Notes under the pieces: generated by a model
Told to the model about the DNA's origin: nothing
The model's database searches: none
What the model saw: the letters and a program-made list of their open reading frames with translations, nothing else
Shown: positions 50,826 through 62,909 of the stretch, piece after piece
Layout: each line of letters opens with the position of its first letter
Position numbering within the stretch: the first letter of the stretch is position 1
Assembly: GCA_020631855.1 (NCBI GenBank)
Contig: JACKGU010000002.1
Location: 159,447 to 223,446, forward strand
Direction: 5' to 3'
Origin: Candidatus Nomurabacteria bacterium
Lineage (GTDB): Bacteria; Patescibacteriota; WWE3; UBA101185; UBA10185
DNA length: 64,000 bases
Made by a program: the position numbers and the translations under genes

Positions 50826-50960
50826 TCGATGGTGAGGGCGGTGGGGATCGAACCCACGACACCCTGGTTAACGCCTAATTCGCAGGCTCATAAGGCGTTC
50901 ACTGAATCAGAACGATTCAGTGTAAAAGCCCTCTGCTCTACCACTGAGCTGTCTTATATA
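50826..50960 (-). pseudogene. Disrupted tRNA-Lys(TTT)-like copy: intact 3' half, ~52-bp insertion in the anticodon loop, degenerate 5' half
   Basis: The first 42 bp TGGTGAGGGCGGTGGGGATCGAACCCACGACACCCTGGTTAA match tRNA-Lys at 62782 with 2 compensatory T-stem changes. After a 52-bp insert, AAAAGCC and TGCTCTACCACTGAGCT (D-arm) follow, but the acceptor 5' strand cannot pair. Confidence 0.6.
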
Positions 50961-51014
50961 GAGAGTCTTAATGTTTTGGCTGATGTAGCTGTTTGTATGA
51001 TTGAACGTTAATCC

Positions 51015-51136
51015 GATACTACTATGTATAGTAGTATATATACTAGTATCGATAGTAGTATGCATAGTAGTATAAAAAATTCCGCGCAGTACTGTACCCA
51101 GTAGTACCTACAGTACTGTGTACACTAGTGTCATAG
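51015..51136. repeat. Iteron-like short repeats (ATAGTAGTAT x4 including one inverted; AGTACTGT-type x3)
   Basis: gATACTACTATgtATAGTAGTATatatactagtatcgATAGTAGTATgcATAGTAGTATaaaa ... CAGTACTGTACCCAGTAGTACCTACAGTACTGTGTAC. Confidence 0.65.
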
Positions 51137-51186: not shown

Positions 51187-51477
51187 TTAATAAAATTTAT
51201 ACTTTTTTGGTTTTTTCTTGCCAAATATTTTCTTAAGCTCAGACTCTGTTTCATATCCGTTGTAGGTCTCGCTCAAAGCATACTCTACAAGCGTCTTAAA
51301 CGACTGTCCTGAGTTAGTTCTTAGATTAGATAGTATTTTCCACCACCCGATATCTAAACGTATTTGAAATGTCTTTTTTTGTAACTTTGTCGACATATAT
51401 AACCCCTCACGGGGTAGTTCCCCCAGCCGTTTCCTTTCTGGTGATTCACGTTCTTGCCTGTGCTTTTGTGTCCTCAC
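51187..51477 (-). CDS. Small basic protein, possibly a ribbon-helix-helix DNA-binding protein
   Basis: Internal start MSTKLQKKTFQIRLDIGWWKILSNL... has a beta-strand then helix pattern. Sits next to the iteron-like repeats. Confidence 0.3.
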   Translation of the reverse strand: MRTQKHRQERESPERKRLGELPREGLYMSTKLQKKTFQIRLDIGWWKILSNLRTNSGQSFKTLVEYALSETYNGYETESELKKIFGKKKPKKYKFY

Positions 51478-52096
51478 CCAGAAAAGGTCTGGGTCCTGTG
51501 TGTTCTACGTAATTACATAACTTTTTCTCTTCATCATCTGTTTATCACCGTCAGAGGTTTCCGTATGGGACGCAGTTAGTGATACTTCTTTCGACCAGGC
51601 CCTTATCGGTGCACGGGCTTTAGACTGCGCAGCCCCTACTGTAAGTCTTAATGACTTTTGAGTGTGAGAAACATCACTCAGAAATCATCAATTCTGTGGC
51701 GCGCGTTTTTATTTGTGAGTGAAAGTTTAGATAATGGAGAAAATAGCATGATGCCCATTAAAAAAACTCCTCACACAAACATTTACTGATGTTTTCAATT
51801 TCTATTTGCTAACTCAGTAAAGGCTGTATTTGGAGTCACGGACTCAGCTTTTGGGTGTTTTACCCAAGCCTTACAATTTCATTTTCGTATAAAAGTCGAT
51901 TTGTGTCAATAGGTAAATGTTGTTGTGACAGTAAATAATGGCAATTATAGGTAAGTATGCATCAATATCGCAATGCGATAGTTTACCCAAAACTTAGATC
52001 CTTATATGAAGATTAACTCTGAGGTATAATCAGAGTATGTTGTAGCTACAACATATGCCATTAAGGCTTAGTTACCTTTAGCAGAAAGATATTTGT

Positions 52097-53674
52097 ATGT
52101 CAGATGAACAAAAAAGACTTTTAGAAAAACAGCTATGGGCTGTTGCCAATACCCTTAGGGGAAAAATGAATGCCGACGAGTATAAAAACTACATACTCGG
52201 CTTCATCTTTTATAAGTACTTATCCGAAAAACTAGAAAAGTATATTAACGAAACCCTCTTATCACGTGAAAGTTTTAAATTTGCTGAAATAAAAGAAGAA
52301 ACAGACGAGGGTAAAAAGATACTAGAAGAGATAAAAAAGGCTTGTGTAAACCATTTGGGCTTTTTCTTACAACCAAACGAACTGTTTTCACACATAGTTA
52401 AAAAAGGTAAGGGAGAACTAAAAGATCAATCTACTTTCATACTGGAAGATCTAAAAGTAATACTAGACACTATCGAAAAGACCTCAATGGGAACAGATAG
52501 CGAAGACGACTTTAAAGGCTTGTTTGATGATGTAGATCTTACCTCTTCTAAGCTTGGTTCAAGCGAAAATAAGAAAAACGAAGCTATTGTAGAGGTACTA
52601 AAACTCCTAAATGGCATAGATTTCAGACTAGAAGACTCAAAAAGTGATCTGTTGGGCGATGCATATGAGTATCTTATTGGTGAATTTGCCGCGGGAGCAG
52701 GTAAAAAGGGTGGTGAGTTCTATACACCTGCGCAGGTTTCAAGATTGTTGGCGCAATTTGTAACTGTTGGGAAGAAAAAAATACGCTCAGTTCTAGACCC
52801 AACCTGTGGTTCTGGATCTTTATTACTCAGACTTAGAGATTATGTTGAGGTAGCTGATTATTACGGGCAAGAGCTTAATCCAACCACATACAACCTAGCA
52901 CGAATGAATATGATTCTTCACGGAGTGCACTTTGATCATTTCACAATAAGACAAGGCGACACTCTAACAGAAGATAGATTTCCTGACTTACAAGCAGAAG
53001 CTATTGTAGCCAATCCACCATTTTCAGCTAAATGGAAGAGTGAAGATGATCCCGCGCTTGTTCATGATGAGAGATTTTCACAATATGGACGTTTAGCACC
53101 AAAAAGTGCAGCGGATTATGCCTTTGTAACTCACATGCTTCACCACCTTAGCGAGAACGGTACTATGGCCATTGTCCTACCACATGGAGTGCTTTTTAGG
53201 GGTGGATCTGAGGGGCAGATAAGAAAACATATCATAGCTAAGCAAAACACCCTGGACGCTGTTGTGGGGCTCCCAGCGAACCTTTTTTATGGCACTTCTA
53301 TCCCTGCATGTGTCCTTGTATTCAAGAAATGCAGACAAGACGATGATGATATTTTATTTATAGATGCCAGTAAGGATTTTGAGAAAAACAAGAATCAGAA
53401 CTATCTAACAGATGAGAATATCAAAAAGATCTTTGAAACTTATAAAGACAGAAAAGAAATTGAAAAGTACTCCCATAAAGCCACACTGGAAGAGATAAAA
53501 GAAAACGATTTTAACCTCAATATCCCAAGGTATGTCGACACATTCGAAGAACCTGAAGAAATTGATATCAAACAAGTTGCACACGAACTACAAAAGTCAG
53601 TAAAAAGAGAGCCTGACATTAAAGCGAAGCTTAATGAAATCCTAGTAGAACTTAATTTGGAAAGTCCTTTTTAG
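52097..53674 (+). CDS. hsdM: Type I restriction-modification N6-adenine DNA methyltransferase subunit
   Basis: HsdM N-terminal domain, AdoMet motif DPTCGSGS, catalytic VANPPFS. Confidence 0.9.
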   Translation: MSDEQKRLLEKQLWAVANTLRGKMNADEYKNYILGFIFYKYLSEKLEKYINETLLSRESFKFAEIKEETDEGKKILEEIKKACVNHLGFFLQPNELFSHIVKKGKGELKDQSTFILEDLKVILDTIEKTSMGTDSEDDFKGLFDDVDLTSSKLGSSENKKNEAIVEVLKLLNGIDFRLEDSKSDLLGDAYEYLIGEFAAGAGKKGGEFYTPAQVSRLLAQFVTVGKKKIRSVLDPTCGSGSLLLRLRDYVEVADYYGQELNPTTYNLARMNMILHGVHFDHFTIRQGDTLTEDRFPDLQAEAIVANPPFSAKWKSEDDPALVHDERFSQYGRLAPKSAADYAFVTHMLHHLSENGTMAIVLPHGVLFRGGSEGQIRKHIIAKQNTLDAVVGLPANLFYGTSIPACVLVFKKCRQDDDDILFIDASKDFEKNKNQNYLTDENIKKIFETYKDRKEIEKYSHKATLEEIKENDFNLNIPRYVDTFEEPEEIDIKQVAHELQKSVKREPDIKAKLNEILVELNLESPF

Positions 53675-54825
53675 TGGTGGTACTAGAAAAAGCATTATTA
53701 GTACCGCCTTTGAGATTTAAAGGGTTTACTGGTAATTGGAACGAGGTGTCGCTGAAACAGCTTCTTACTCCTATTGAGAGAAAAACAAAAAAACCAGCTG
53801 AGAGTTACACATCGATTGGAATACGAAGCCACTTTAAAGGTACTATGCAAAGATACGACACTGATCCTAAAAGTAATTCTATGGAATATCTCTACTTAGT
53901 ACATAAGGACGATTTTATTCTAAACATAACATTTGCTTGGGAAGGCGCTCTAGCTATTGCGAGGGAAGAAGATGATTTAGGTTATGTATCTCACAGATTT
54001 CCAACATATCGAGTTAATGAGGATATCGTTACAAAGGAGTTTTTTCAATATCTGTACCCAACGGAAAGAATGAAATATAACTTAAGAAATATATCTCCAG
54101 GCGGTGCAGGTCGAAATAGAGTGTTAAATAAAAGGGATTTTCTTAAATTGAAAGTAAAGATTCCTGAAACAGATGAGCAAAATAAGATATCTGAGTTTAT
54201 GCGCTCTCTGGAAGATTGGATACAAAACTTAAAATCACAAAAGGAAGAACTTGAGAAATATAAAAAAGGCATGATGCAGAAGATTTTCTCTCAAGAGATT
54301 AGGTTTAAAGATGGTAATGGTAAAGATTATCCCGATTGGAAAGATGTTAAATTCAAAGACATCTTTGTTGTAGGTAGTGGTAAAGATTATAAGCATCTAC
54401 AAAGCGGTGATATTCCAGTTTATGGTACAGGTGGTTACATGACCTCAGTTAATGATTATCTCTATGAGGGCGAAAGTGTAGGTATTGGAAGAAAAGGTAC
54501 AATCGATAAGCCTATATTTCTTAAAAACAAGTTTTGGACTGTGGACACACTATTTTATACACATTCTTTTAAGGGCGTTTTACCTTATTTTGTTTTCTTA
54601 TTGTTTCAAAACGTGAATTGGAAGAAATACAACGAGGCTTCAGGTGTACCAAGTCTATCTAAAAACACTCTTTATACAATCAAAACTAGGGTACCTAGTA
54701 TCGACGAACAAAACAAAATTATAGCGTTGTTCACGTCTTTAGAAGATCTAACAAGTTCAAAGCAAAATCAAATAGAAAAAGCAGAAATGTGGAAAAAAGG
54801 TTTATTGCAGGAGATGTTTGTATAA
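53674..54825 (+). CDS. hsdS: Type I restriction-modification specificity subunit
   Basis: Two target-recognition domains separated by conserved helical spacers. Start overlaps the hsdM stop. Confidence 0.8.
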   Translation: MVVLEKALLVPPLRFKGFTGNWNEVSLKQLLTPIERKTKKPAESYTSIGIRSHFKGTMQRYDTDPKSNSMEYLYLVHKDDFILNITFAWEGALAIAREEDDLGYVSHRFPTYRVNEDIVTKEFFQYLYPTERMKYNLRNISPGGAGRNRVLNKRDFLKLKVKIPETDEQNKISEFMRSLEDWIQNLKSQKEELEKYKKGMMQKIFSQEIRFKDGNGKDYPDWKDVKFKDIFVVGSGKDYKHLQSGDIPVYGTGGYMTSVNDYLYEGESVGIGRKGTIDKPIFLKNKFWTVDTLFYTHSFKGVLPYFVFLLFQNVNWKKYNEASGVPSLSKNTLYTIKTRVPSIDEQNKIIALFTSLEDLTSSKQNQIEKAEMWKKGLLQEMFV

Positions 54826-56451
54826 ATGAACAAAGAGCTTATACGAAGTATTGCTGCTTCGAAAAACAGCCTAATAGTAGGACTCGCCGGACCTGGTACG
54901 GGAAAAAGCTATACATTTAAGGAAATTGTTCTATCTGAAGATTATAAAGGCAAAAAAATATTAATCCTGTCTTTTATAAATAAACTTGTAGATGATCTAA
55001 AAGATGATTTTGAAAAATTCGAAAACGTAGAAGTCTCCACATTGCACGCCTTTGCCTATATAAATATGGGCGAGGTACTACTAAACGAAAATTTGGATAA
55101 ATATATTAGTGAAGACTATAAATACATTTTTGGTTCAGACATAAACTATGCCGAGAAGTTTTATCAAAACGCACTAACCGAGGAAGAAGAAACATTCTAT
55201 TTCAACAGAAGTGCATACTATAGATATGACAGGGACTTATATTCCTTTAATTCAATAATATACAAATTCAATCAACTCATGAATGCTTCTGATAGTAATA
55301 TCCCGCGATATGATTTGATTCTAATTGATGAATTTCAAGATTTTAATAGTCTTGAGGTAGAGCTAATTCAACTGTTGAACAAGGTTAATAAAGTTGTTGT
55401 AGTGGGAGATGATGACCAATCACTATACGCTTTTAAAAAAGCTAAACCTGATAAAATACGCGATCTCTATAGAAGTGAGAACACATATAGCTTTTCTCTA
55501 GATAACTGCTACAGATGTCCAAAAGTTATTGTGGATGCAACTAATAATCTAGTAAAAAATGCTGTCGAAAATAACTACTTACAGGAAAGGGAGAATGCAA
55601 AAAAGTTTCTATATCCTGAAGAAGATCCGAATCATACGAAAAAGCATGAAGTTAGTGAAAAGTATCCAAAAATATATTTTGCACAACAAAAGCAAGGGGA
55701 TCTATTAACCTATTCCTTAGTAAAGTTTATCAAAGATGACGTAACTGAGAATGATGGTGGACGTGTTCTTGTTATCTGCCCAAGATATCTGATGAATAGT
55801 ATTTACGACGGATTAACAAGTAAAGGTCTTAATGTTATTGACTTTGAGCTTTTCTCTAGCGAAGAAAAAAATAAAATTAAACACTCTGAATTAATAAAAG
55901 CCCTTGAAATATTATCCACTAGGAAAACGGATAATTTGGCTTTGAGACAACTTCTAAATAAATATGTATCTGATGATTTCCTAAAGGAAAGCATCAAATC
56001 TTCCCATACTGAAAACAAGAAACTGTGGTCATACTTAGTTGAGGATACTCGGACAAATATTGAAGAGGATGTTACTTTATTTAAAAAAGTGAGAAAAGGA
56101 AAGGACGATCTTACCGAGACCGACTTATTAAAGTTAAACCAGCTTTTTAATCTGAAAAACATACTATCCAAAATGATAAACGGATTTAACGCTGTCAAAA
56201 AAGGAGCTATTGAGGTTGAATTAACTACAACGGTAAGTTCCAAGGGGTTATCTGCAGAATTTGTGTATTACTTGGCTATTGATGATAGCGACATGCTAGA
56301 TAGAGATACAGGAACAATTACAGACAACAAACTTTGCGAATTCTTAGTGGGTATGACAAGGGCAAAAAGTAAATTGGTACTTATTTCGCGAAAAGACGCA
56401 CATCCTAAAATATTGGAGTTTTTGGATGATTCTTATATTGAAACTATATGA
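54826..56451 (+). CDS. UvrD/PcrA-like SF1 helicase embedded between hsdS and hsdR
   Basis: Motif I GLAGPGTGKS, II LILIDEFQDF, III VVVGDDDQSLYAFKKA, IV CYRCPKVIV, VI VGMTRAKSKLVL. Confidence 0.7.
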   Translation: MNKELIRSIAASKNSLIVGLAGPGTGKSYTFKEIVLSEDYKGKKILILSFINKLVDDLKDDFEKFENVEVSTLHAFAYINMGEVLLNENLDKYISEDYKYIFGSDINYAEKFYQNALTEEEETFYFNRSAYYRYDRDLYSFNSIIYKFNQLMNASDSNIPRYDLILIDEFQDFNSLEVELIQLLNKVNKVVVVGDDDQSLYAFKKAKPDKIRDLYRSENTYSFSLDNCYRCPKVIVDATNNLVKNAVENNYLQERENAKKFLYPEEDPNHTKKHEVSEKYPKIYFAQQKQGDLLTYSLVKFIKDDVTENDGGRVLVICPRYLMNSIYDGLTSKGLNVIDFELFSSEEKNKIKHSELIKALEILSTRKTDNLALRQLLNKYVSDDFLKESIKSSHTENKKLWSYLVEDTRTNIEEDVTLFKKVRKGKDDLTETDLLKLNQLFNLKNILSKMINGFNAVKKGAIEVELTTTVSSKGLSAEFVYYLAIDDSDMLDRDTGTITDNKLCEFLVGMTRAKSKLVLISRKDAHPKILEFLDDSYIETI

Positions 56452-59246
56452 CACATCAATCAGAACAACAACTAGAAAATACACTAATAAACCAACTACA
56501 AAGACTTGGATTTACGTTGGTTAATATCCAAGATACTAATGATTTGTACGTCAACCTACTCAAACAACTTGAGAAGTTTAACAATACAGAATTTTCTGAA
56601 TACGAGTTTGATCAGATCGTTAACTATTTACACAAAGGTGATAGATTTCAAAAAGCCAAAACACTAAGAGATCGCTTTGTTTTGCATAGAGATGATGGCA
56701 CTACTTTTTGGGTTAGGTTCTTCAACACAGACAAGTGGTGTAAGAACGAATACCAAGTTACGCACCAAGTAACTCAAAAAGGCAAATATGAAAACAGATA
56801 CGATGTAACACTTCTTATAAACGGGCTGCCTCTTGTTCAAGTAGAACTAAAACGCAGAGGTATGGAAATGAAAGAAGCTTTCAACCAAATACAGCGTTAC
56901 CATAAGCACACGTTTACAGGAACTTTATTTGAATACGTACAGATATTTGTTATCTCAAACGGAGTAAATACAAAATACTTTTCCAATAATCCTAAACAAT
57001 CGTTTGAACAAACATTTTACTGGACTGATGTAGACAACAGAAAAGTAACTAAACTAGATGAGTTTACAGAGGTATTTTTAGAAAAATGCTTTGTTTCCAA
57101 GATGATAGCAGAATACACAGTACTAGCAGAAGCACTTCAAATACCTATGGTATTGCGCCCGTATCAATACTACGCAGTAAAGGCAATTGAAAAAAGAGTA
57201 TTAGAAACAAATAAGAACGGTTATATCTGGCACACAACAGGATCAGGTAAAACACTAACATCTTATAAAGCAAGCCAGATACTTTCACAAATGCCAGATG
57301 TTAAAAAAGTTATGTTTGTTGTGGACAGAAAGGACTTGGACATCCAAACTACTAAAGAGTTCAATTCGTTCTCTGAGGGCTCTGTAGACGGTACAAATAA
57401 CACTCATAACCTAGTACAACAACTAAAAGACAATAACAGAAAGCTTATTGTTACAACTATTCAGAAGCTTGATATTGCAATAAGCAAGGAACACTATCTT
57501 AAGCAATTTGAAGATTTAGCAAATGAAAAAGTAGTCATAATCTTTGATGAATGCCATAGATCTCAGTTTGGTCAAACACACGCCAGAATAAAAAGCTTCT
57601 TTAACAATGCACAACTGTTTGGATTTACTGGCACACCTATCTTTGCAGATAACAATGTTGGCGGAGTTACAACAAAAGACGTATTTGATGAGTGTCTTCA
57701 CAAATACATCATCACAAACGCTATTTCAGACGGTAATGTCTTAGGATTTGCGGTTGAATATGTCGGAAGATACAAACAAAAAGCACCTGATACTTTGGAT
57801 GCAGATATTTTTGCAGATGCATTAGTTGAGGGAATAGATAAACGTGAAGTTCTTGAAAGCGATGATCGACTTAATAAGATTGCAAACTATGTACTAGCTG
57901 ACTGGAAGCGTAAAACCAAATCAGGCAAGTTTAATGCCATTTTTGCAGTAACAAGCATTGAAGTACTCAAAAAATACTACACATTGTTTAAAGCTAAAAA
58001 GTCCGAAGACTTCAAAATAGCAACAATCTTTACGTATCAAGCAAATGAAAACGAGAGTGAAGACATGTTAGATGTAGATGTATTTGCCTTTGAAGACGCG
58101 CCTGTAAACCAACATTCTAGGGATTATTTGGAAGATTGTATAAAAGACTACAACAGTCTCTTTTCTACAAACTACTCTACAGATCGATTCTATGACTACT
58201 ACAGAGACCTACAGGGAAGAATTAAGAACAAAGAAGTAGATTTGGTCATTGTAGTGAATATGTTTTTAACTGGTTTTGACAGCAAAAGACTAAATACTCT
58301 TTATGTTGATAAAAACTTGAGATATCACGGGCTTATACAAGCATATTCACGGACAAACAGAACACTGACCTCTGATAAACCACATGGAAATATAATCTCA
58401 TTTAGAAACCTAAAAGAAGCAACAGATAAAGCACTAGCCTTGTTTGGTGATGAAAATGCCAAAGAAGTTGTTTTTAAAAAACCATATGAAGAGCAAAAGA
58501 AAGAGTTTGAAGCAAAGTTATCTGACCTTAAAGAAAAGGCGCCTACACTTGAGTCTATTGATGAATTAAAAGGCGAAGAAGAAAAAGCTGAATTTGTAAA
58601 AACATTCAGAGATCTCTTGCGCATAAAGTCTTCTTTAGAAACGTTTGCAGAATTTAGCTTTGATGACTTAGGTGTATCTGAACAAGAGTTCTATGACTAT
58701 CAAAGCAAATACCTAGATATTTATGAAGAGCGCAGGAACAACAGCCCAGAGGCAGAATCAATACTAGATCAAATAGATTTTGAGCTAGAGCTTACTATCC
58801 GAGATATTATCAACTTCGATTACATCATCATGTTGATAGCAGGACTTAAAAACATTAGTTCTGACGCGATAAGGGAGAAGAAAACAGAGGATATTCTTAA
58901 GATCTTTGACCGTGATGTACAGCTAAGAAAGAAGAAAGAACTGATTAGGAAGTTTATCGAAGAGAATCTACCAAAGGTTACAAAAGCAGATGATGTTGAA
59001 AAGGCATTTAGTGATTTCTGGCAAAGTGAAAGAGCTACAGTGCTCAAAAAACTAGCCGAAGACGAAAATATTCCGTCCGAAAACATTGAAAAGCTGATTG
59101 GTGAGTATCTATACACTCAAAAGCTTCCACAAGAACAGGACATAGCAGATATGCTACCAGAACAACCAAGAATCCTTGAAAGAAGTAGTATTATTGAACG
59201 TATAAAAACAGCTATAGAAAATATAGTTGATATATTTGAATGGTAA
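56448..59246 (+). CDS. hsdR: Type I restriction enzyme R subunit
   Basis: N-terminal nuclease motif DVTLLINGLPLVQVELKRRG, SF2 ATPase motifs HTTGSGKTLTS and FDECHRSQ, ~932 aa. Overlaps the helicase stop by 4 bp. Confidence 0.9.
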   Translation: MTHQSEQQLENTLINQLQRLGFTLVNIQDTNDLYVNLLKQLEKFNNTEFSEYEFDQIVNYLHKGDRFQKAKTLRDRFVLHRDDGTTFWVRFFNTDKWCKNEYQVTHQVTQKGKYENRYDVTLLINGLPLVQVELKRRGMEMKEAFNQIQRYHKHTFTGTLFEYVQIFVISNGVNTKYFSNNPKQSFEQTFYWTDVDNRKVTKLDEFTEVFLEKCFVSKMIAEYTVLAEALQIPMVLRPYQYYAVKAIEKRVLETNKNGYIWHTTGSGKTLTSYKASQILSQMPDVKKVMFVVDRKDLDIQTTKEFNSFSEGSVDGTNNTHNLVQQLKDNNRKLIVTTIQKLDIAISKEHYLKQFEDLANEKVVIIFDECHRSQFGQTHARIKSFFNNAQLFGFTGTPIFADNNVGGVTTKDVFDECLHKYIITNAISDGNVLGFAVEYVGRYKQKAPDTLDADIFADALVEGIDKREVLESDDRLNKIANYVLADWKRKTKSGKFNAIFAVTSIEVLKKYYTLFKAKKSEDFKIATIFTYQANENESEDMLDVDVFAFEDAPVNQHSRDYLEDCIKDYNSLFSTNYSTDRFYDYYRDLQGRIKNKEVDLVIVVNMFLTGFDSKRLNTLYVDKNLRYHGLIQAYSRTNRTLTSDKPHGNIISFRNLKEATDKALALFGDENAKEVVFKKPYEEQKKEFEAKLSDLKEKAPTLESIDELKGEEEKAEFVKTFRDLLRIKSSLETFAEFSFDDLGVSEQEFYDYQSKYLDIYEERRNNSPEAESILDQIDFELELTIRDIINFDYIIMLIAGLKNISSDAIREKKTEDILKIFDRDVQLRKKKELIRKFIEENLPKVTKADDVEKAFSDFWQSERATVLKKLAEDENIPSENIEKLIGEYLYTQKLPQEQDIADMLPEQPRILERSSIIERIKTAIENIVDIFEW

Positions 59247-59249
59247 AAA

Positions 59250-60011
59250 ATGAGCGAATACTATAACCCACAGAGATCAAAAAAATATTGTTACGACAAA
59301 AACAGCACTGAACCATTCAAGCTAAGCAGATCTAAGATAGATAACTTTATTAGTTGCCCACGATGTTTTTATATTGATCGAGTTTTAGGAACTTCCCAAC
59401 CCCCAGGATTTCCTTTTGCGCTGAACAGTGCAGTTGACGCGTTACTTAAAAAAGAATTTGATTATCATCGTACATCTGATAAAGAACACCCACTTATTAC
59501 AAAATATGGTGTAGATGCGAAACCAGTAGCACATGAAAGTCTTGATGACTGGCGAAATAACTTTGTTGGGGTTCAGTATCTTCATGAACCAACAAATCTA
59601 CTTGTTTTTGGCGCGATTGATGATTTATGGATCAGCTCAAAAGGAGAATACATTGTTGTAGATTACAAATCCACCAGTAAGAGCGAAGAAATAACTGAAC
59701 TTAACAAAGACTGGCAAGATGGCTACAAGCGCCAAATGGAAGTATACCAGTGGCTTTTAAGAAACAACGGGTACAAGGTATCTGATACAGGTTACTTTGT
59801 TTACTGCAATGGAAACACCGATCTAGAAGCTTTTGACGCCAAACTAGAGTTTGATGTAACTCTTATTTCTTATACTGGTGACGACTCTTGGGTGGAACAG
59901 ACAATCTTTGATATTAAGAAGTGTTTGGATTCAGATAAGATACCTGAAAGCGCACCTGATTGTGATTACTGTGCGTATTACAACACTAGAGATAAACACG
60001 AGAAGATATAA
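59250..60011 (+). CDS. Cas4/RecB-family PD-(D/E)XK nuclease with four Cys (putative Fe-S cluster)
   Basis: GAIDDLW ... GEYIVVDYKS (D...E.K), QMEVYQWL (QxxxY), N-terminal CPRC and C-terminal CDYC. Begins 4 bp after the hsdR stop. Confidence 0.6.
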   Translation: MSEYYNPQRSKKYCYDKNSTEPFKLSRSKIDNFISCPRCFYIDRVLGTSQPPGFPFALNSAVDALLKKEFDYHRTSDKEHPLITKYGVDAKPVAHESLDDWRNNFVGVQYLHEPTNLLVFGAIDDLWISSKGEYIVVDYKSTSKSEEITELNKDWQDGYKRQMEVYQWLLRNNGYKVSDTGYFVYCNGNTDLEAFDAKLEFDVTLISYTGDDSWVEQTIFDIKKCLDSDKIPESAPDCDYCAYYNTRDKHEKI

Positions 60012-60136
60012 AACACAGTTTTCAAAAAACCTGACCTGTTAAAACTGTCTACGGTACATCAAATCCAAAGCAAAAAATAGATTTTTAGACCTGCGGTGGT
60101 TTTCAAGATTGTTGTGCTTTAAAGCATAGACCTACC

Positions 60137-60330
60137 ATGTTATGCAACATTTCTCATTTTTATATATTTGTTACAACACACTTTTATACTTATAAATGTT
60201 ACACAACATTTTTGTTGTAACTGTTGTAACAACGAATACTAAAGTTACAGCAGATTGAAAATGTGTAGACAAATATGTGTAAGTTTATAAGCATTTGTGT
60301 TGTAACATTGTGATACAAGCCAAACTGTTA
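60137..60330. promoter_or_regulatory. Array of GTTGTAAC/GTTACAAC palindromic half-sites and -10-like TGAGGTATAATC upstream of mrr
   Basis: ATGTTATGCAACAT, TGTTACAACAC, ATGTTACACAACATT, TTGTTGTAACTGTTGTAACAACG, TGTGTTGTAACATTGTG. TGAGGTATAATC also occurs upstream of hsdM at 52021. Confidence 0.45.
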
Positions 60331-60399
60331 ACACATTTATTATTACAATAACTAAGCTATAGATGTTGAGGTATAATCTATTCATAAGGATTAAAAAAT

Positions 60400-61299
60400 A
60401 TGTCTATACCAACATTTGATGAAACATTCTTACCAATATTGAACATTCTCTCAAAAGGAGAAACTTTAAAGACATCTGATCTTCCCAGTCTTTTATTGGA
60501 AGATGGGCATTTCTCGTTATCCGAAGAAGAACAGAAGAAAAAGATATCTAGTGGTTCAAATATGTTTTCCAATAGAGTCTACTGGGGAGTTACATATCTC
60601 AGACAAGCCAAACTTGTAGAGCGCCCCTCTAGGGGATTTGTAAAAATAACTCAAAAAGGTTCTGACTATCTAGCAACCAATCCAAGTGAGTTAACACTTA
60701 GCTGGATTAAACAAGATTCGGATTATCAGGCATATGAACCAGTGCGATCAAAGCAAAAAGATGAAGAAGAAAGTTTTGATATTGGAGGCATGTCTCCTCA
60801 AGACCTGATAGATCAAGGTGTGAGGAAACTCAACGAGCAATTAAAGAATGACTTAATAGAAAAACTTCACGAAAGCAATCCTTACTACTTTGAAAAGATT
60901 GTTCTTATACTCTTTAAAAAGATGGGTTATGGTGATTTCCAAGAAACTCCAAAGTCTGGTGATGGCGGAATAGATGGAATAATAAATAACGATCTACTAG
61001 GTCTTGAAAAAATCTATATACAAGCAAAAAGATATGCGGAAACAAATAAGGTTAGAGAACCAGAAATACGAAATTTCATTGGCGCAATGAGTGGCGATGT
61101 GAGCAGGGGTATATTTGTTACAACATCTGAATTTGATGACTCCGCAAAACAAAAGGCAAGAGACGCTCACAACCACAAAATAATACTTATAGATGGTGAT
61201 AGATTAACTGATTTGATGATCGAATATAATGTAGGCGTTCAAGTACAAGCCTCTTTTGACGTTAAAGATGTTGATGAAGACTTCTTTGAATTAGGTTAA
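60400..61299 (+). CDS. mrr: Mrr-family type IV (modification-dependent) restriction endonuclease
   Basis: Mrr_N winged helix, then catalytic domain FEKIVLILFKKMGYG ... GDGGIDGI ... IYIQAKRY. Confidence 0.7.
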   Translation: MSIPTFDETFLPILNILSKGETLKTSDLPSLLLEDGHFSLSEEEQKKKISSGSNMFSNRVYWGVTYLRQAKLVERPSRGFVKITQKGSDYLATNPSELTLSWIKQDSDYQAYEPVRSKQKDEEESFDIGGMSPQDLIDQGVRKLNEQLKNDLIEKLHESNPYYFEKIVLILFKKMGYGDFQETPKSGDGGIDGIINNDLLGLEKIYIQAKRYAETNKVREPEIRNFIGAMSGDVSRGIFVTTSEFDDSAKQKARDAHNHKIILIDGDRLTDLMIEYNVGVQVQASFDVKDVDEDFFELG

Positions 61300-61376
61300 T
61301 ACAACTCTCGCATTGCGAGAGTCCTGTATGGTTGCACACTTCCTAAAATCCTTTACCATGGAGCTGTAGCTATCCT

Positions 61377-62909
61377 ATGAAAAACACAGCTATCGCTTAC
61401 ATTCGCGTAAGCTCAGAAGAACAAGTAAAAAACTACTCACTAGCTAATCAAAAAGAATATTGTGAAAAATATGCGCGGGAAAATGATTTAGATTTAGTAA
61501 AGATATTCAAAGAAGAGGGTAAATCCGCAATGAATATTGATCGTCCCGCTCTAATTTCCCTACTAGAGTACTGTAGAAAAAACACTGGCAAAGTAGATTA
61601 CTTAGTTCTTTATAAAATAGACAGACTATCACGCTCAACAATCGATTATCTAGAAATAAAAAGACGTTTAGCTAAATACGGTGTACAAGTTAAATCTGTT
61701 ACAGAGTTCACAGACGATACTCCTATGGGTGAGTTCATGGAAACTCTTATTGCCGCACAAGCCAAACTAGACAATGCTATAAGAGCCGAGCGGGTAAGTG
61801 ATGGTATTAGAAAAAGAGTTGAATCAGGACTACCTGTTAGCGTTCCACCAATAGGTTATAAGCTATCTAAAGGTAATAACGGCAAAAGCATTACAATACC
61901 AGACGAACCCACTTTCTCCCTTTTACAAAGAGCTGGTTATCAGTACCTTACTGGAAACTATACTTTCACCGAATTGGCGGAGTTACTCAATAAGTGGGGG
62001 TTTACTACAAAGAAAGGTAATCCCGCGACATCTAACTTTGTAGGTAAGTTTCTAAGAATGTCTTTTTACAAGGGAATTATCTACTCAAAGAAATGGAAGA
62101 AAGAATACAGAGGTATGCATATACCAATGTTTACTGATAACGAATGGGACGATATCCAAGATATTGTAGACGGAAACCCTTTAACAATTAAGAAAAAGCA
62201 AAGAGCAGAAGAGTTTCCCCTAAGAGGATTCGTTACGTGTAGCGTAACAGGAGATCCACTAACAGGTTCTTGGTGTAAAGGTAATACAAAACACTACGCA
62301 TACTACTATTCACCATCAAAGTATAAATCTATTCCAAAAGATACTCTAGAAAGTGAATTTACGGCTTTGTTGGACCTTATAGAGCCAGCGCCAGGTGTTA
62401 TAGAGTCTTTCTCACGTGTTTTATTTGATAAATATAATGAAAAGTACTCAAAGCTACTACAAAACGAACAACTATTATCAGATCAGATAAAAGATATAAA
62501 CGGTGTGGGAAATGAGGTGGAAGATGACTTGGCGGTGAAAAACCTAATAAAAAATGAAAACAAAATAAATATGATAACTATAGAGACCGCTAGGAACTTT
62601 TCAGAACATTTCTTAGAACACATATCCCAGTATTGGAGAACTGCCCACCTAAGAGACAAAGTTAAAATACAAGAAGTATTATTCCCTCAGGGACTTACTT
62701 ACACGTATCCTGAATTTTTAGAACCTAGGATAAGCTGTCTTTATAAGATAAATACGGAAAAGTCGACTCTCAATCATTTATTGGTGAGGGCGGTGAGGAT
62801 CGAACTCACGACACCCTGGTTAAAAGCCAGGTGCTCTACCACTGAGCTACGCCCCCTCGATAAGCTTATAAATTGTTACAAAAATATGGAAGAAGTGCAA
62901 TATTTTTAA
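61377..62909 (+). CDS. Large serine recombinase (integrase); true 3' end probably before or at the tRNA-Lys gene
   Basis: Resolvase catalytic domain AIAYIRVSSEEQ ... YKIDRLSRS, a recombinase domain, and a Cys-containing segment CSVTGDPLTGSWCKG. The ORF stays open across antisense tRNA-Lys (62782-62856). Confidence 0.7.
   Translation: MKNTAIAYIRVSSEEQVKNYSLANQKEYCEKYARENDLDLVKIFKEEGKSAMNIDRPALISLLEYCRKNTGKVDYLVLYKIDRLSRSTIDYLEIKRRLAKYGVQVKSVTEFTDDTPMGEFMETLIAAQAKLDNAIRAERVSDGIRKRVESGLPVSVPPIGYKLSKGNNGKSITIPDEPTFSLLQRAGYQYLTGNYTFTELAELLNKWGFTTKKGNPATSNFVGKFLRMSFYKGIIYSKKWKKEYRGMHIPMFTDNEWDDIQDIVDGNPLTIKKKQRAEEFPLRGFVTCSVTGDPLTGSWCKGNTKHYAYYYSPSKYKSIPKDTLESEFTALLDLIEPAPGVIESFSRVLFDKYNEKYSKLLQNEQLLSDQIKDINGVGNEVEDDLAVKNLIKNENKINMITIETARNFSEHFLEHISQYWRTAHLRDKVKIQEVLFPQGLTYTYPEFLEPRISCLYKINTEKSTLNHLLVRAVRIELTTPWLKARCSTTELRPLDKLINCYKNMEEVQYF
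62782..62856 (-). tRNA. tRNA-Lys (TTT), CCA encoded
   Basis: Reverse complement GGGGGCGTAGCTCAGTGGTAGAGCACCTGGCTTTTAACCAGGGTGTCGTGAGTTCGATCCTCACCGCCCTCACCA. Confidence 0.8.

Follow-up and report, generated by a model that had tools for sequence, protein, structure and literature searches.

A compact SF1 helicase and a solo Cas4-family nuclease within a type I restriction-modification operon of Candidatus Nomurabacteria: a possible end-processing unit

Why would a type I restriction-modification (RM) operon carry a helicase and a further nuclease of its own? The question is raised by a five-gene operon at positions 52097-60011 of a 64-kb stretch of DNA from Candidatus Nomurabacteria, a candidate phyla radiation (CPR) lineage. 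The stretch (assembly GCA_020631855.1, contig JACKGU010000002.1, positions 159,447 to 223,446) is called the window below, and plain coordinates refer to it. The answer that we favour, tentatively and at a little under an even chance, is by analogy: the helicase and the nuclease would be an accessory, minimal RecB/AddAB-like end-processing unit acting after restriction. The genes of the operon, in the order hsdM-hsdS-helicase-hsdR-nuclease, are given here by the coordinates of their open reading frames (ORFs).

52097..53674, plus strand: hsdM, type I methyltransferase subunit, 525 aa (TIGR00497; N6_Mtase, 8.5e-112; HsdM_N)
53674..54825, plus strand: hsdS, 383 aa, GTG start, with two target-recognition domains (Methylase_S; PADLOC Specificity_I, 5e-116)
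54826..56451, plus strand: helicase, 541 aa, accessory superfamily 1A (SF1A) protein of UvrD/PcrA/Rep fold (Pfam UvrD-helicase and AAA_19)
56448..59246, plus strand: hsdR, restriction and translocase subunit, 932 aa (TIGR00348; HSDR_N, SWI2_SNF2, T1R_D3-like and EcoR124_C)
59250..60011, plus strand: nuclease, 253 aa, solo Cas4-family PD-(D/E)XK protein (PDDEXK_1, 6.9e-13; Cas_Cas4, 2.6e-5)

This layout had been proposed in an initial annotation made from the DNA letters and their ORFs, and both bear it out, junctions included. When read on the DNA, hsdM and hsdS overlap by 1 bp (TAGTG), hsdS and the helicase gene abut with no gap (TAA, then ATG), the helicase gene and hsdR overlap by 4 bp (ATGA), and 3 bp separate hsdR from the nuclease gene (TAA-AAA-ATG). 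The motifs that had been quoted for the helicase and the nuclease are all found in the two proteins, and the domain assignments are upheld by Pfam, NCBIfam and PADLOC. The zero-gap and ATGA junctions imply that the helicase is co-translated with both hsdS and hsdR. A scan with consensus sequences, from which CPR promoters may deviate, found no plus-strand promoter-like or terminator-like sites within the operon, which is weakly consistent with the five genes being one transcription unit.

The first step towards an answer is to ask where else the helicase is found. Relatives were sought in one genome per species, over 185,579 species genomes, and at least 467 were obtained. These occur in CPR lineages, Bacteroidota, Acidobacteriota, Planctomycetota and Verrucomicrobiota, and also in Deltaproteobacteria, Chloroflexota, Legionella and archaea. 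For the neighbourhood counts, 80 loci were kept and neighbours were taken within 10 kb (individual loci are cited by L numbers, and database proteins by P numbers). RM genes of several types lie within that distance in at least 22 of the 80 genome loci; 17 of these were detected with the window's Hsd proteins, and the others came from Pfam or clustering: L007 and L022 (both with a C5 methyltransferase), L046, L061 and L037. Among the same-strand neighbours, RM domains dominate the Pfam matches (N6_Mtase, Eco57I, MmeI, Methylase_S, HSDR_N and ResIII), with N6_Mtase in 13 of the 72 upstream operonic neighbour proteins; C5, D12 and N4 methyltransferases, DpnII, BpuJI and Type ISP are further neighbours. 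For example, the helicase gene is located downstream of a DpnII system in L001, of a type IIG enzyme and methylase in L003-L006, and of an R-M-S type I operon in L174. Elsewhere it follows AbiH, Fic or CBASS-like genes, or an AAA_15 ATPase gene together with one for an RloB-like protein.

Within related type I operons the place of the helicase gene (Hel) varies. The window and L008 have the order S-Hel-R; L014, L074 and L080 show M-Hel-S-R, L055 shows R-Hel, and in L057 and L174 the helicase gene comes last (R-M-S-Hel). Judged by sequence identity over six loci, the divergence of the helicase tracks that of the Hsd proteins. L008 is 58% identical to the window in HsdM, 52% in the helicase, 54% in HsdR and 61% in the nuclease; L014 is 45% identical in HsdM, 46% in the helicase and 41% in HsdR; L055 is 34% identical in the helicase and 39% in HsdR; and L074 and L080 are 38-40% identical in HsdM, 28% in the helicase and 24-28% in HsdR. 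Nothing else presented here speaks as strongly for a helicase that works with the restriction system as this combination of a conserved neighbourhood, a shuffled gene order and a matching divergence.

Viral contigs contain essentially no members of the helicase family (best match, 29% identity), and the nuclease family was found there in only nine loci. This scarcity makes a phage origin or a counter-defence role unlikely.

The second step is to ask how often the helicase and the nuclease are found together. About ten independent loci encode the helicase next to a member of this nuclease family; in most of them the two genes are adjacent and the helicase gene comes first. The nuclease gene follows directly in L003, L007, L017, L018, L037, L145, L163 and L173, at a distance that runs from -8 to +16 bp for six of these loci and is 87 bp in L163. 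The neighbours of these adjacent pairs are type IIG genes, a type I-like R and M-S set, Shedu, or an AAA_15 ATPase accompanied by an RloB-like protein. In a second genome, at L008 (3411-14496), the window's five components are rearranged, and GmrSD and Abi_alpha are added as further embedded defence genes (GmrSD-Nuc-HsdM-Abi_alpha-HsdS-Hel-HsdR). In L007 (8203-12367) and L173 (6210-10373), the pair belongs to a conserved four-gene module, in which it is preceded by genes for an AAA_15/AAA_21 ATPase (402 aa) and a small RloB-like protein (159-178 aa). Both modules adjoin a DNA methyltransferase gene, of the C5 type in L007 and of the EcoRI type in L173, where there is also a GmrSD-like gene; the module is reminiscent of a split GajA with GajB, to which a nuclease has been added.

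In five further loci (L022, L032, L033, L041 and L174), the gene after the helicase encodes a DUF2779 or RNase_H_2 protein. Such proteins are described as having a Cas4-like DUF83 domain alongside an RNase H-like 3'-5' exonuclease (Majorek et al. 2014), and one database protein, P0317, fuses DUF2779 to the present nuclease family. On these comparisons the helicase-nuclease pair is real, recurrent and facultative. The ancestral form was likely a helicase-then-nuclease bicistron that docked onto DNA-cutting defence modules, the pair being split by hsdR in the window. The initial annotation had proposed a survey for co-occurrence; the two families do meet elsewhere, once with the same five components, and the pair is not obligate.

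Two side observations concern the slots that these genes occupy. In the more distant helicase-containing operons of L074 (16442-17149) and L080 (8556-9125), a gene for a YgjP-like metallopeptidase lies directly after hsdR, which is the slot of the nuclease gene in the window. In L018 (8690-9925), a protein with the Shedu SduA_C domain is encoded between a type I-like pair, R and a fused M-S, and the helicase-nuclease pair.

The nuclease family by itself is large and conserved to an unusual degree, with more than 8000 matches and 399 representatives after clustering at 50% (E<=1e-30). Its best 120 matches, with the exception of one identical partial sequence, are 71-80% identical across different CPR lineages. 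Upstream neighbours of the nuclease that belong to defence include ResIII, N6_Mtase, GmrSD, reverse transcriptase, Fic and RhuM; in L256 and L260, the nuclease gene lies downstream of close HsdR homologues in loci that have no helicase gene. The family is also fused to GYF+TIR (P0271), NUDIX (P0244), HD (HD_4; P0275) and DUF2779 (P0317), and these domain combinations point to roles that are related to defence or to nucleotides. Two long matches were considered as possible fusions with a helicase and rejected, P0241 being a tandem nuclease and P0317 the DUF2779-nuclease fusion.

In NCBIfam, HsdM scores 487 bits with TIGR00497 (cut-off, 243) and HsdR 488 bits with TIGR00348 (cut-off, 285), and Methylase_S of Pfam matches HsdS over two stretches. 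HsdR can be called type IC-like because of its C-terminal EcoR124_C domain (Pfam, 5.7e-56). Its own PD-(D/E)XK and QxxxY motifs are kept when the sequence is read (D119, E133, K135, Q147 and Y151), at a spacing that we take to be equal to that of EcoR124I (D151/E165/K167/Q179/Y183). Since these motifs are retained, the extra nuclease is no substitute for a dead one. Both the set of subunits and the nuclease and C-terminus of HsdR thus assign the locus, on sequence grounds, to the type I RM systems, in a type IC-like form.

In the helicase, the motifs are located at residues 19 (GLAGPGTGKS), 168 (DEFQDF), 194 (GDDDQSLYAF), 229 (YRCP) and 509 (GMTRAKSKL). Throughout 33 homologues, whose identities go down to 33%, every SF1 motif is invariant, and the invariant columns include G24, K27, D168, E169, Q171, G194, D195, Q198, R230, K473, G474 and R512. 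With Walker A, the DExx of motif II and motifs III-VI all conserved, the protein is predicted to be an SF1A motor. A Foldseek search with its AlphaFold model (predicted local distance difference test score, pLDDT, 89.4) placed UvrD and PcrA at the top, with template modelling (TM) scores of 0.68-0.71 and Rep also at ~0.7, followed by AdnAB, AddA and RecB; the TM score with GajB was only 0.35. The uvrD, rep and pcrA equivalog models of NCBIfam give 54-73 bits against cut-offs of 911-1144. The helicase therefore shares the UvrD/PcrA/Rep fold but is no orthologue of those housekeeping enzymes. PADLOC models of GajB match it partially (best, 8.5e-30). Of the relatives suggested for it at the outset, the UvrD/PcrA fold is confirmed, the resemblance to GajB is weak, and the addA models stay far below their cut-offs.

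The motifs of the nuclease are found at residues 36 (CPRC), 123 (IDDLW), 137 (VDYKS), 162 (QMEVYQWL) and 238 (CDYC). On the family alignment, D124/D125, D138, K140, Q162 and Y166 form an invariant catalytic set, so that the D/E/K residues, whose loss would have counted against the proposal, are kept, and with them those of QxxxY. The annotation had counted four cysteines, in CPRC and CDYC; these are present, and the family actually has five invariant ones, C36, C39, C225, C238 and C241, arranged as CX2C ... C-X12-CX2C. This differs from the canonical Cas4/AddB pattern of one N-terminal cysteine plus CX2CX5C, which makes an iron-sulfur (Fe-S) cluster only plausible; a metal cluster of some kind is likely. 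A PDB sequence search with the nuclease profile returned nothing at E<=0.01 and, at E<=10, only a spurious 22-residue match to cellulases, so a fold search was needed. With a structural model (pLDDT 85.8), Foldseek retrieved Cas4, the nuclease domain of AdnA/AdnB, MGME1, RecE, Exo5, AddB and ACE1. At the superfamily level, then, the protein is assigned by its motifs and fold to the Cas4/RecB-family PD-(D/E)XK enzymes, and the Cas4-family and AddB relationships expected of it hold as fold matches, the NCBIfam model TIGR00372 scoring below its cut-off (40.8 bits against 65). It was rejected as a CRISPR-associated Cas4 on this score and on its surroundings, TRF having found no CRISPR-like array in the 64-kb window and a Pfam scan no cas1 or cas2 domain in the eight genes from 51187 to 62909.

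It has next to be asked whether the operon belongs to a system that already has a name. PADLOC gave only generic GajB and Cas4 matches for the accessory proteins, apart from weak mad2/mad8 matches; the MADS system was rejected, the matches being weak and the NCBIfam MAD2 model giving 59 bits where its cut-off is 720. The searchable literature yielded neither a named system nor an experiment for this type of operon, and literature searches for a named two-gene anti-phage system of a UvrD-like and a Cas4-like protein gave nothing usable.

The closest prior description is that of Hudaiberdiev et al. (2017, PMC5704561), who found solo Cas4 to be over-represented in CPR bacteria, naming Nomurabacteria, and to adjoin RM genes in DPANN archaea. 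They also reported UvrD-Cas4-like fusions beside type III RM and Dcm/Vsr genes, for which an 'ancillary' role was proposed, and unfused operons of uvrD and a cas4-like gene in Clostridiales, in contexts that did not suggest defence. The fused module has the same ingredients as the window, a UvrD-like SF1 helicase and a Cas4-like nuclease of pfam12705 near RM genes. However, its domains are joined in one protein and mainly accompany type III RM or Dcm/Vsr, whereas the genes in the window are separate, split by hsdR and part of a type I operon, and the window's helicase co-diverges with the Hsd proteins. Membership in the fused family was therefore rejected, both domains and the RM context being present but the genes unfused; the window's pair would function in the manner of the module, in a different arrangement. 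The earlier statement that such a helicase and nuclease had not been described as a unit has to be qualified in the light of this work (PMC5704561).

AddAB, AdnAB and RecBCD likewise combine an SF1A motor with a RecB/Cas4-type nuclease that has cysteine ligands, and double-strand ends, restriction products among them, would be the expected substrate in either case. The fold matches of the helicase to AdnAB, AddA and RecB, and of the nuclease to the AdnAB nuclease domain and AddB, support the suggestion that the pair follows this design, and it plausibly works like AddAB or RecB. The differences are that those enzymes are built of fused subunits of ~1000-1200 aa, whereas the window has separate proteins of 541 and 253 aa, that the pair has neither a second, inactivated motor nor a Chi-recognition apparatus, and that the cysteines of AddB and Cas4 are spaced C...CX2CX5C, unlike those of the window's nuclease. 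With motor and nuclease in separate genes and AddA models at 15-18 bits against NCBIfam cut-offs of 700-860, membership in AddAB, RecBCD or AdnAB was rejected.

Gabija also pairs a small UvrD-like helicase, GajB, with a DNA-cutting partner. That partner is the OLD nuclease GajA, whereas the window's operon has no GajA/OLD gene and a partner of Cas4 type; Pfam found neither an AAA_15 nor a Toprim gene in the operon, the GajB matches are partial, and membership was rejected. With the prokaryotic Argonaute system pAgo-ACE1 (APACE1), the window shares a solo Cas4-family accessory to DNA-targeting defence, ACE1 being among the fold matches; the partner there is an Argonaute, ACE1 trims guide DNAs and there is no helicase, whereas the partner in the window is an RM enzyme (PMC12094033).

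The last comparison is with the prr locus. As for its layout, we take prrC to lie between hsdS and hsdR in EcoprrI. A review confirms no more than the presence of the gene inside a type IC locus (PMC12707154), and with this the view that type I loci take up accessory defence genes, from which the initial annotation had started, is established. EcoprrI is like the window in having an accessory defence gene within a type IC hsd operon; PrrC, however, is an anticodon-nuclease guard, whereas the genes embedded in the window encode DNA enzymes that are also found with other RM types. Neither accessory protein has a PrrC or RloC match in Pfam, NCBIfam or PADLOC, and a PrrC/RloC anticodon-nuclease guard was rejected since only the embedding is shared.

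If the pair does act as an end-processing unit, the following sequence can be envisaged. HsdR, with its own nuclease intact, would break both strands of unmodified DNA; the helicase would load onto the new end and unwind it; the Cas4-like nuclease would degrade the displaced strand; and a single cut would thus be turned into irreversible destruction of the invader, possibly also providing a source of nucleotides. The partners of the helicase, namely type I, type II and type IIG enzymes and OLD-like ATPase-Toprim modules, share the property of breaking DNA. The analysis establishes the anatomy of the operon, the conservation of its proteins and their genomic setting; the cooperation of the two enzymes, the restriction-generated end as substrate, the polarity of each enzyme and the metal cluster are steps that we infer. 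There are precedents for both halves of the scheme. In E. coli, RecBCD degrades restricted DNA, and phages inhibit RecBCD for that reason (PMC12707154); the Cas4-family enzyme ACE1 boosts interference by pAgo, which is an experimental precedent for a solo Cas4 as an accessory (PMC12094033).

Several observations weigh against an end-processing unit. With an intact nuclease in HsdR, nothing in the operon demands an extra one. Most helicase loci have no recognisable nuclease partner, and from the side of the nuclease, only two of 80 metagenome loci carry the helicase (L145 and L163) and 78 do not. Housekeeping genes, gyrB and short-chain dehydrogenases among them, also lie upstream of the nuclease. 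A search of the nuclease family's 150 best representatives turned up no helicase-nuclease fusion. Finally, hhalign showed no link between the nuclease profile and the DUF2779 partner protein, and because of this the Cas4-like content of DUF2779 rests on Majorek et al. (2014) and on P0317.

A more ambitious possibility, which we consider unlikely, is that the helicase, with the nuclease where there is one, is a true extra subunit in one lineage of type I (and other) restriction enzymes, which docks on the restriction complex and converts its single, non-turnover cut into processive degradation. If it were true, the operon would encode an autonomous 'cut-and-shred' restriction machine in organisms without CRISPR and perhaps without RecBCD/AddAB; literature searches for an inventory of the latter in CPR bacteria gave nothing usable. 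Such a machine could also supply nucleotide salvage in those CPR bacteria that are unable to make nucleotides.

Another explanation, likewise improbable, is that the helicase and the nuclease are separate defence genes, stand-alone or with other partners, that happen to lodge in an insertion hotspot and cooperate neither with each other nor with HsdMSR. Each family is mostly found without the other; the helicase also follows the CBASS-like, Fic, AbiH and AAA_15/RloB-like genes noted above, and other proteins join the nuclease to a TIR, NUDIX or HD domain. Related hsd operons embed unrelated genes as well, namely Abi_alpha, a YgjP-like peptidase and GmrSD. However, at least eight independent loci have adjacent pairs, far more than chance should give for a single-copy family, the identity of the helicase follows that of the Hsd proteins across the six loci, and the junctions in the window imply its co-translation with hsdS and hsdR. 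If the pair should nevertheless be two independent lodgers, the locus would be an ordinary defence island.

Quite unlikely is a guard of the PrrC kind, in which the type I complex would hold the helicase, with or without the nuclease, inactive until a phage anti-restriction protein such as a DNA mimic disabled HsdMSR and so released abortive infection, running by DNA degradation or nucleotide depletion as described for GajB. In favour of a guard, the helicase gene of this type IC-like system has the place after hsdS and before hsdR that we take prrC to have in EcoprrI, and PADLOC matches the helicase to GajB, which a preprint reports to be a DNA-terminus sensor that hydrolyses (d)ATP and (d)GTP (bioRxiv 10.1101/2023.05.02.539174). 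Yet the family is also found with type II, type IIG and other systems, for which shared DNA ends are a simpler common factor than a shared inhibitor; its fold is far nearer to UvrD/PcrA than to GajB, and no toxin-like domain is present.

Host-side repair, with the pair as a minimal recombination-repair end processor that limits damage from self-restriction or ordinary breaks instead of attacking invaders, is very unlikely, for although the nuclease family is very abundant and unusually conserved across CPR lineages and sometimes lies beside housekeeping genes, and although a repair role was suggested for the unfused uvrD and cas4-like operons (Hudaiberdiev et al. 2017, PMC5704561), the genes in the window travel on a mobile island that also carries an integrase and a further restriction enzyme, the neighbours of the helicase are overwhelmingly defence genes, and the helicase family is rare, at the count given above.

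The island itself spans ~12 kb and, as its termini indicate, is integrated in a tRNA-Lys gene of Candidatus Nomurabacteria. Its features outside the operon are the following.

50830..50950, minus strand: tRNA-Lys remnant, where the island probably has its left end (direct repeats D3 and D8; sequence read)
51014..51078, no strand: repeats of 12-nt period, alternately inverted ATAGTAGTAT / ATACTACTAT (repeat families D1 and D2; TRF period 12 and 24)
51187..51477, minus strand: small ORF, 96 aa (69 aa in the public record), no Pfam match
60400..61299, plus strand: Mrr-type type IV modification-dependent endonuclease (Mrr_N and Mrr_cat; PADLOC mREase_IV, 9e-68)
61377..62909, plus strand: large serine recombinase (Resolvase, 7e-37, and Recombinase; Pfam)
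62782..62856, minus strand: intact tRNA-Lys(TTT), right end of the island (ARAGORN; Rfam tRNA, 72.6 bits)

The remnant contains a 42-nt copy of the 3' half of tRNA-Lys at 50830-50871, which is 95% identical and whose two differences are compensatory and lie in the T stem, and a D-arm-like piece at 50923-50950 (89%), with ~52 nt between the two. An intron-containing tRNA was considered for this element and rejected, because it lacks the 5' acceptor strand and is called neither by ARAGORN nor, at its gathering threshold, by Rfam. The ATAGTAGTAT / ATACTACTAT array near the left end may be a protein-binding array for the recombinase or for the product of ORF 51187-51477, which may in turn be a regulator of the island. 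The Mrr gene is the second defence gene of the island. The large serine recombinase is the probable integrase from its domains, and its ORF overruns the tRNA-Lys gene, which is on the opposite strand. The same locus is also present on contig JACKGV010000006.1 (GCA_020631795.1) and in several further samples, and the helicase has 100% identity to a protein that is annotated as coming from Candidatus Nomurabacteria. In 13 of the 80 related genome loci, homologues of the large serine recombinase are encoded no more than 10 kb from the helicase gene, so islands of this sort, which such recombinases may often mobilise, appear to be one of its usual vehicles.

Three things are new here. The pair is unfused, and the type I operon that houses it also splits it. 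The helicase family is distinct and compact, is found with several RM types, as its neighbourhoods indicate, and diverges along with the Hsd proteins. Finally, this helicase alternates between Cas4-like and DUF2779-type nuclease partners. In outline, the link of UvrD/Cas4-type genes to RM was already predicted in 2017. CPR bacteria mostly lack CRISPR-Cas and depend heavily on restriction systems. For the post-cleavage step in these genomes, the helicase family, which often comes with a Cas4-type nuclease, is a candidate that is concrete and can be cloned, and it would also offer an experimental handle on the 'solo Cas4' proteins.

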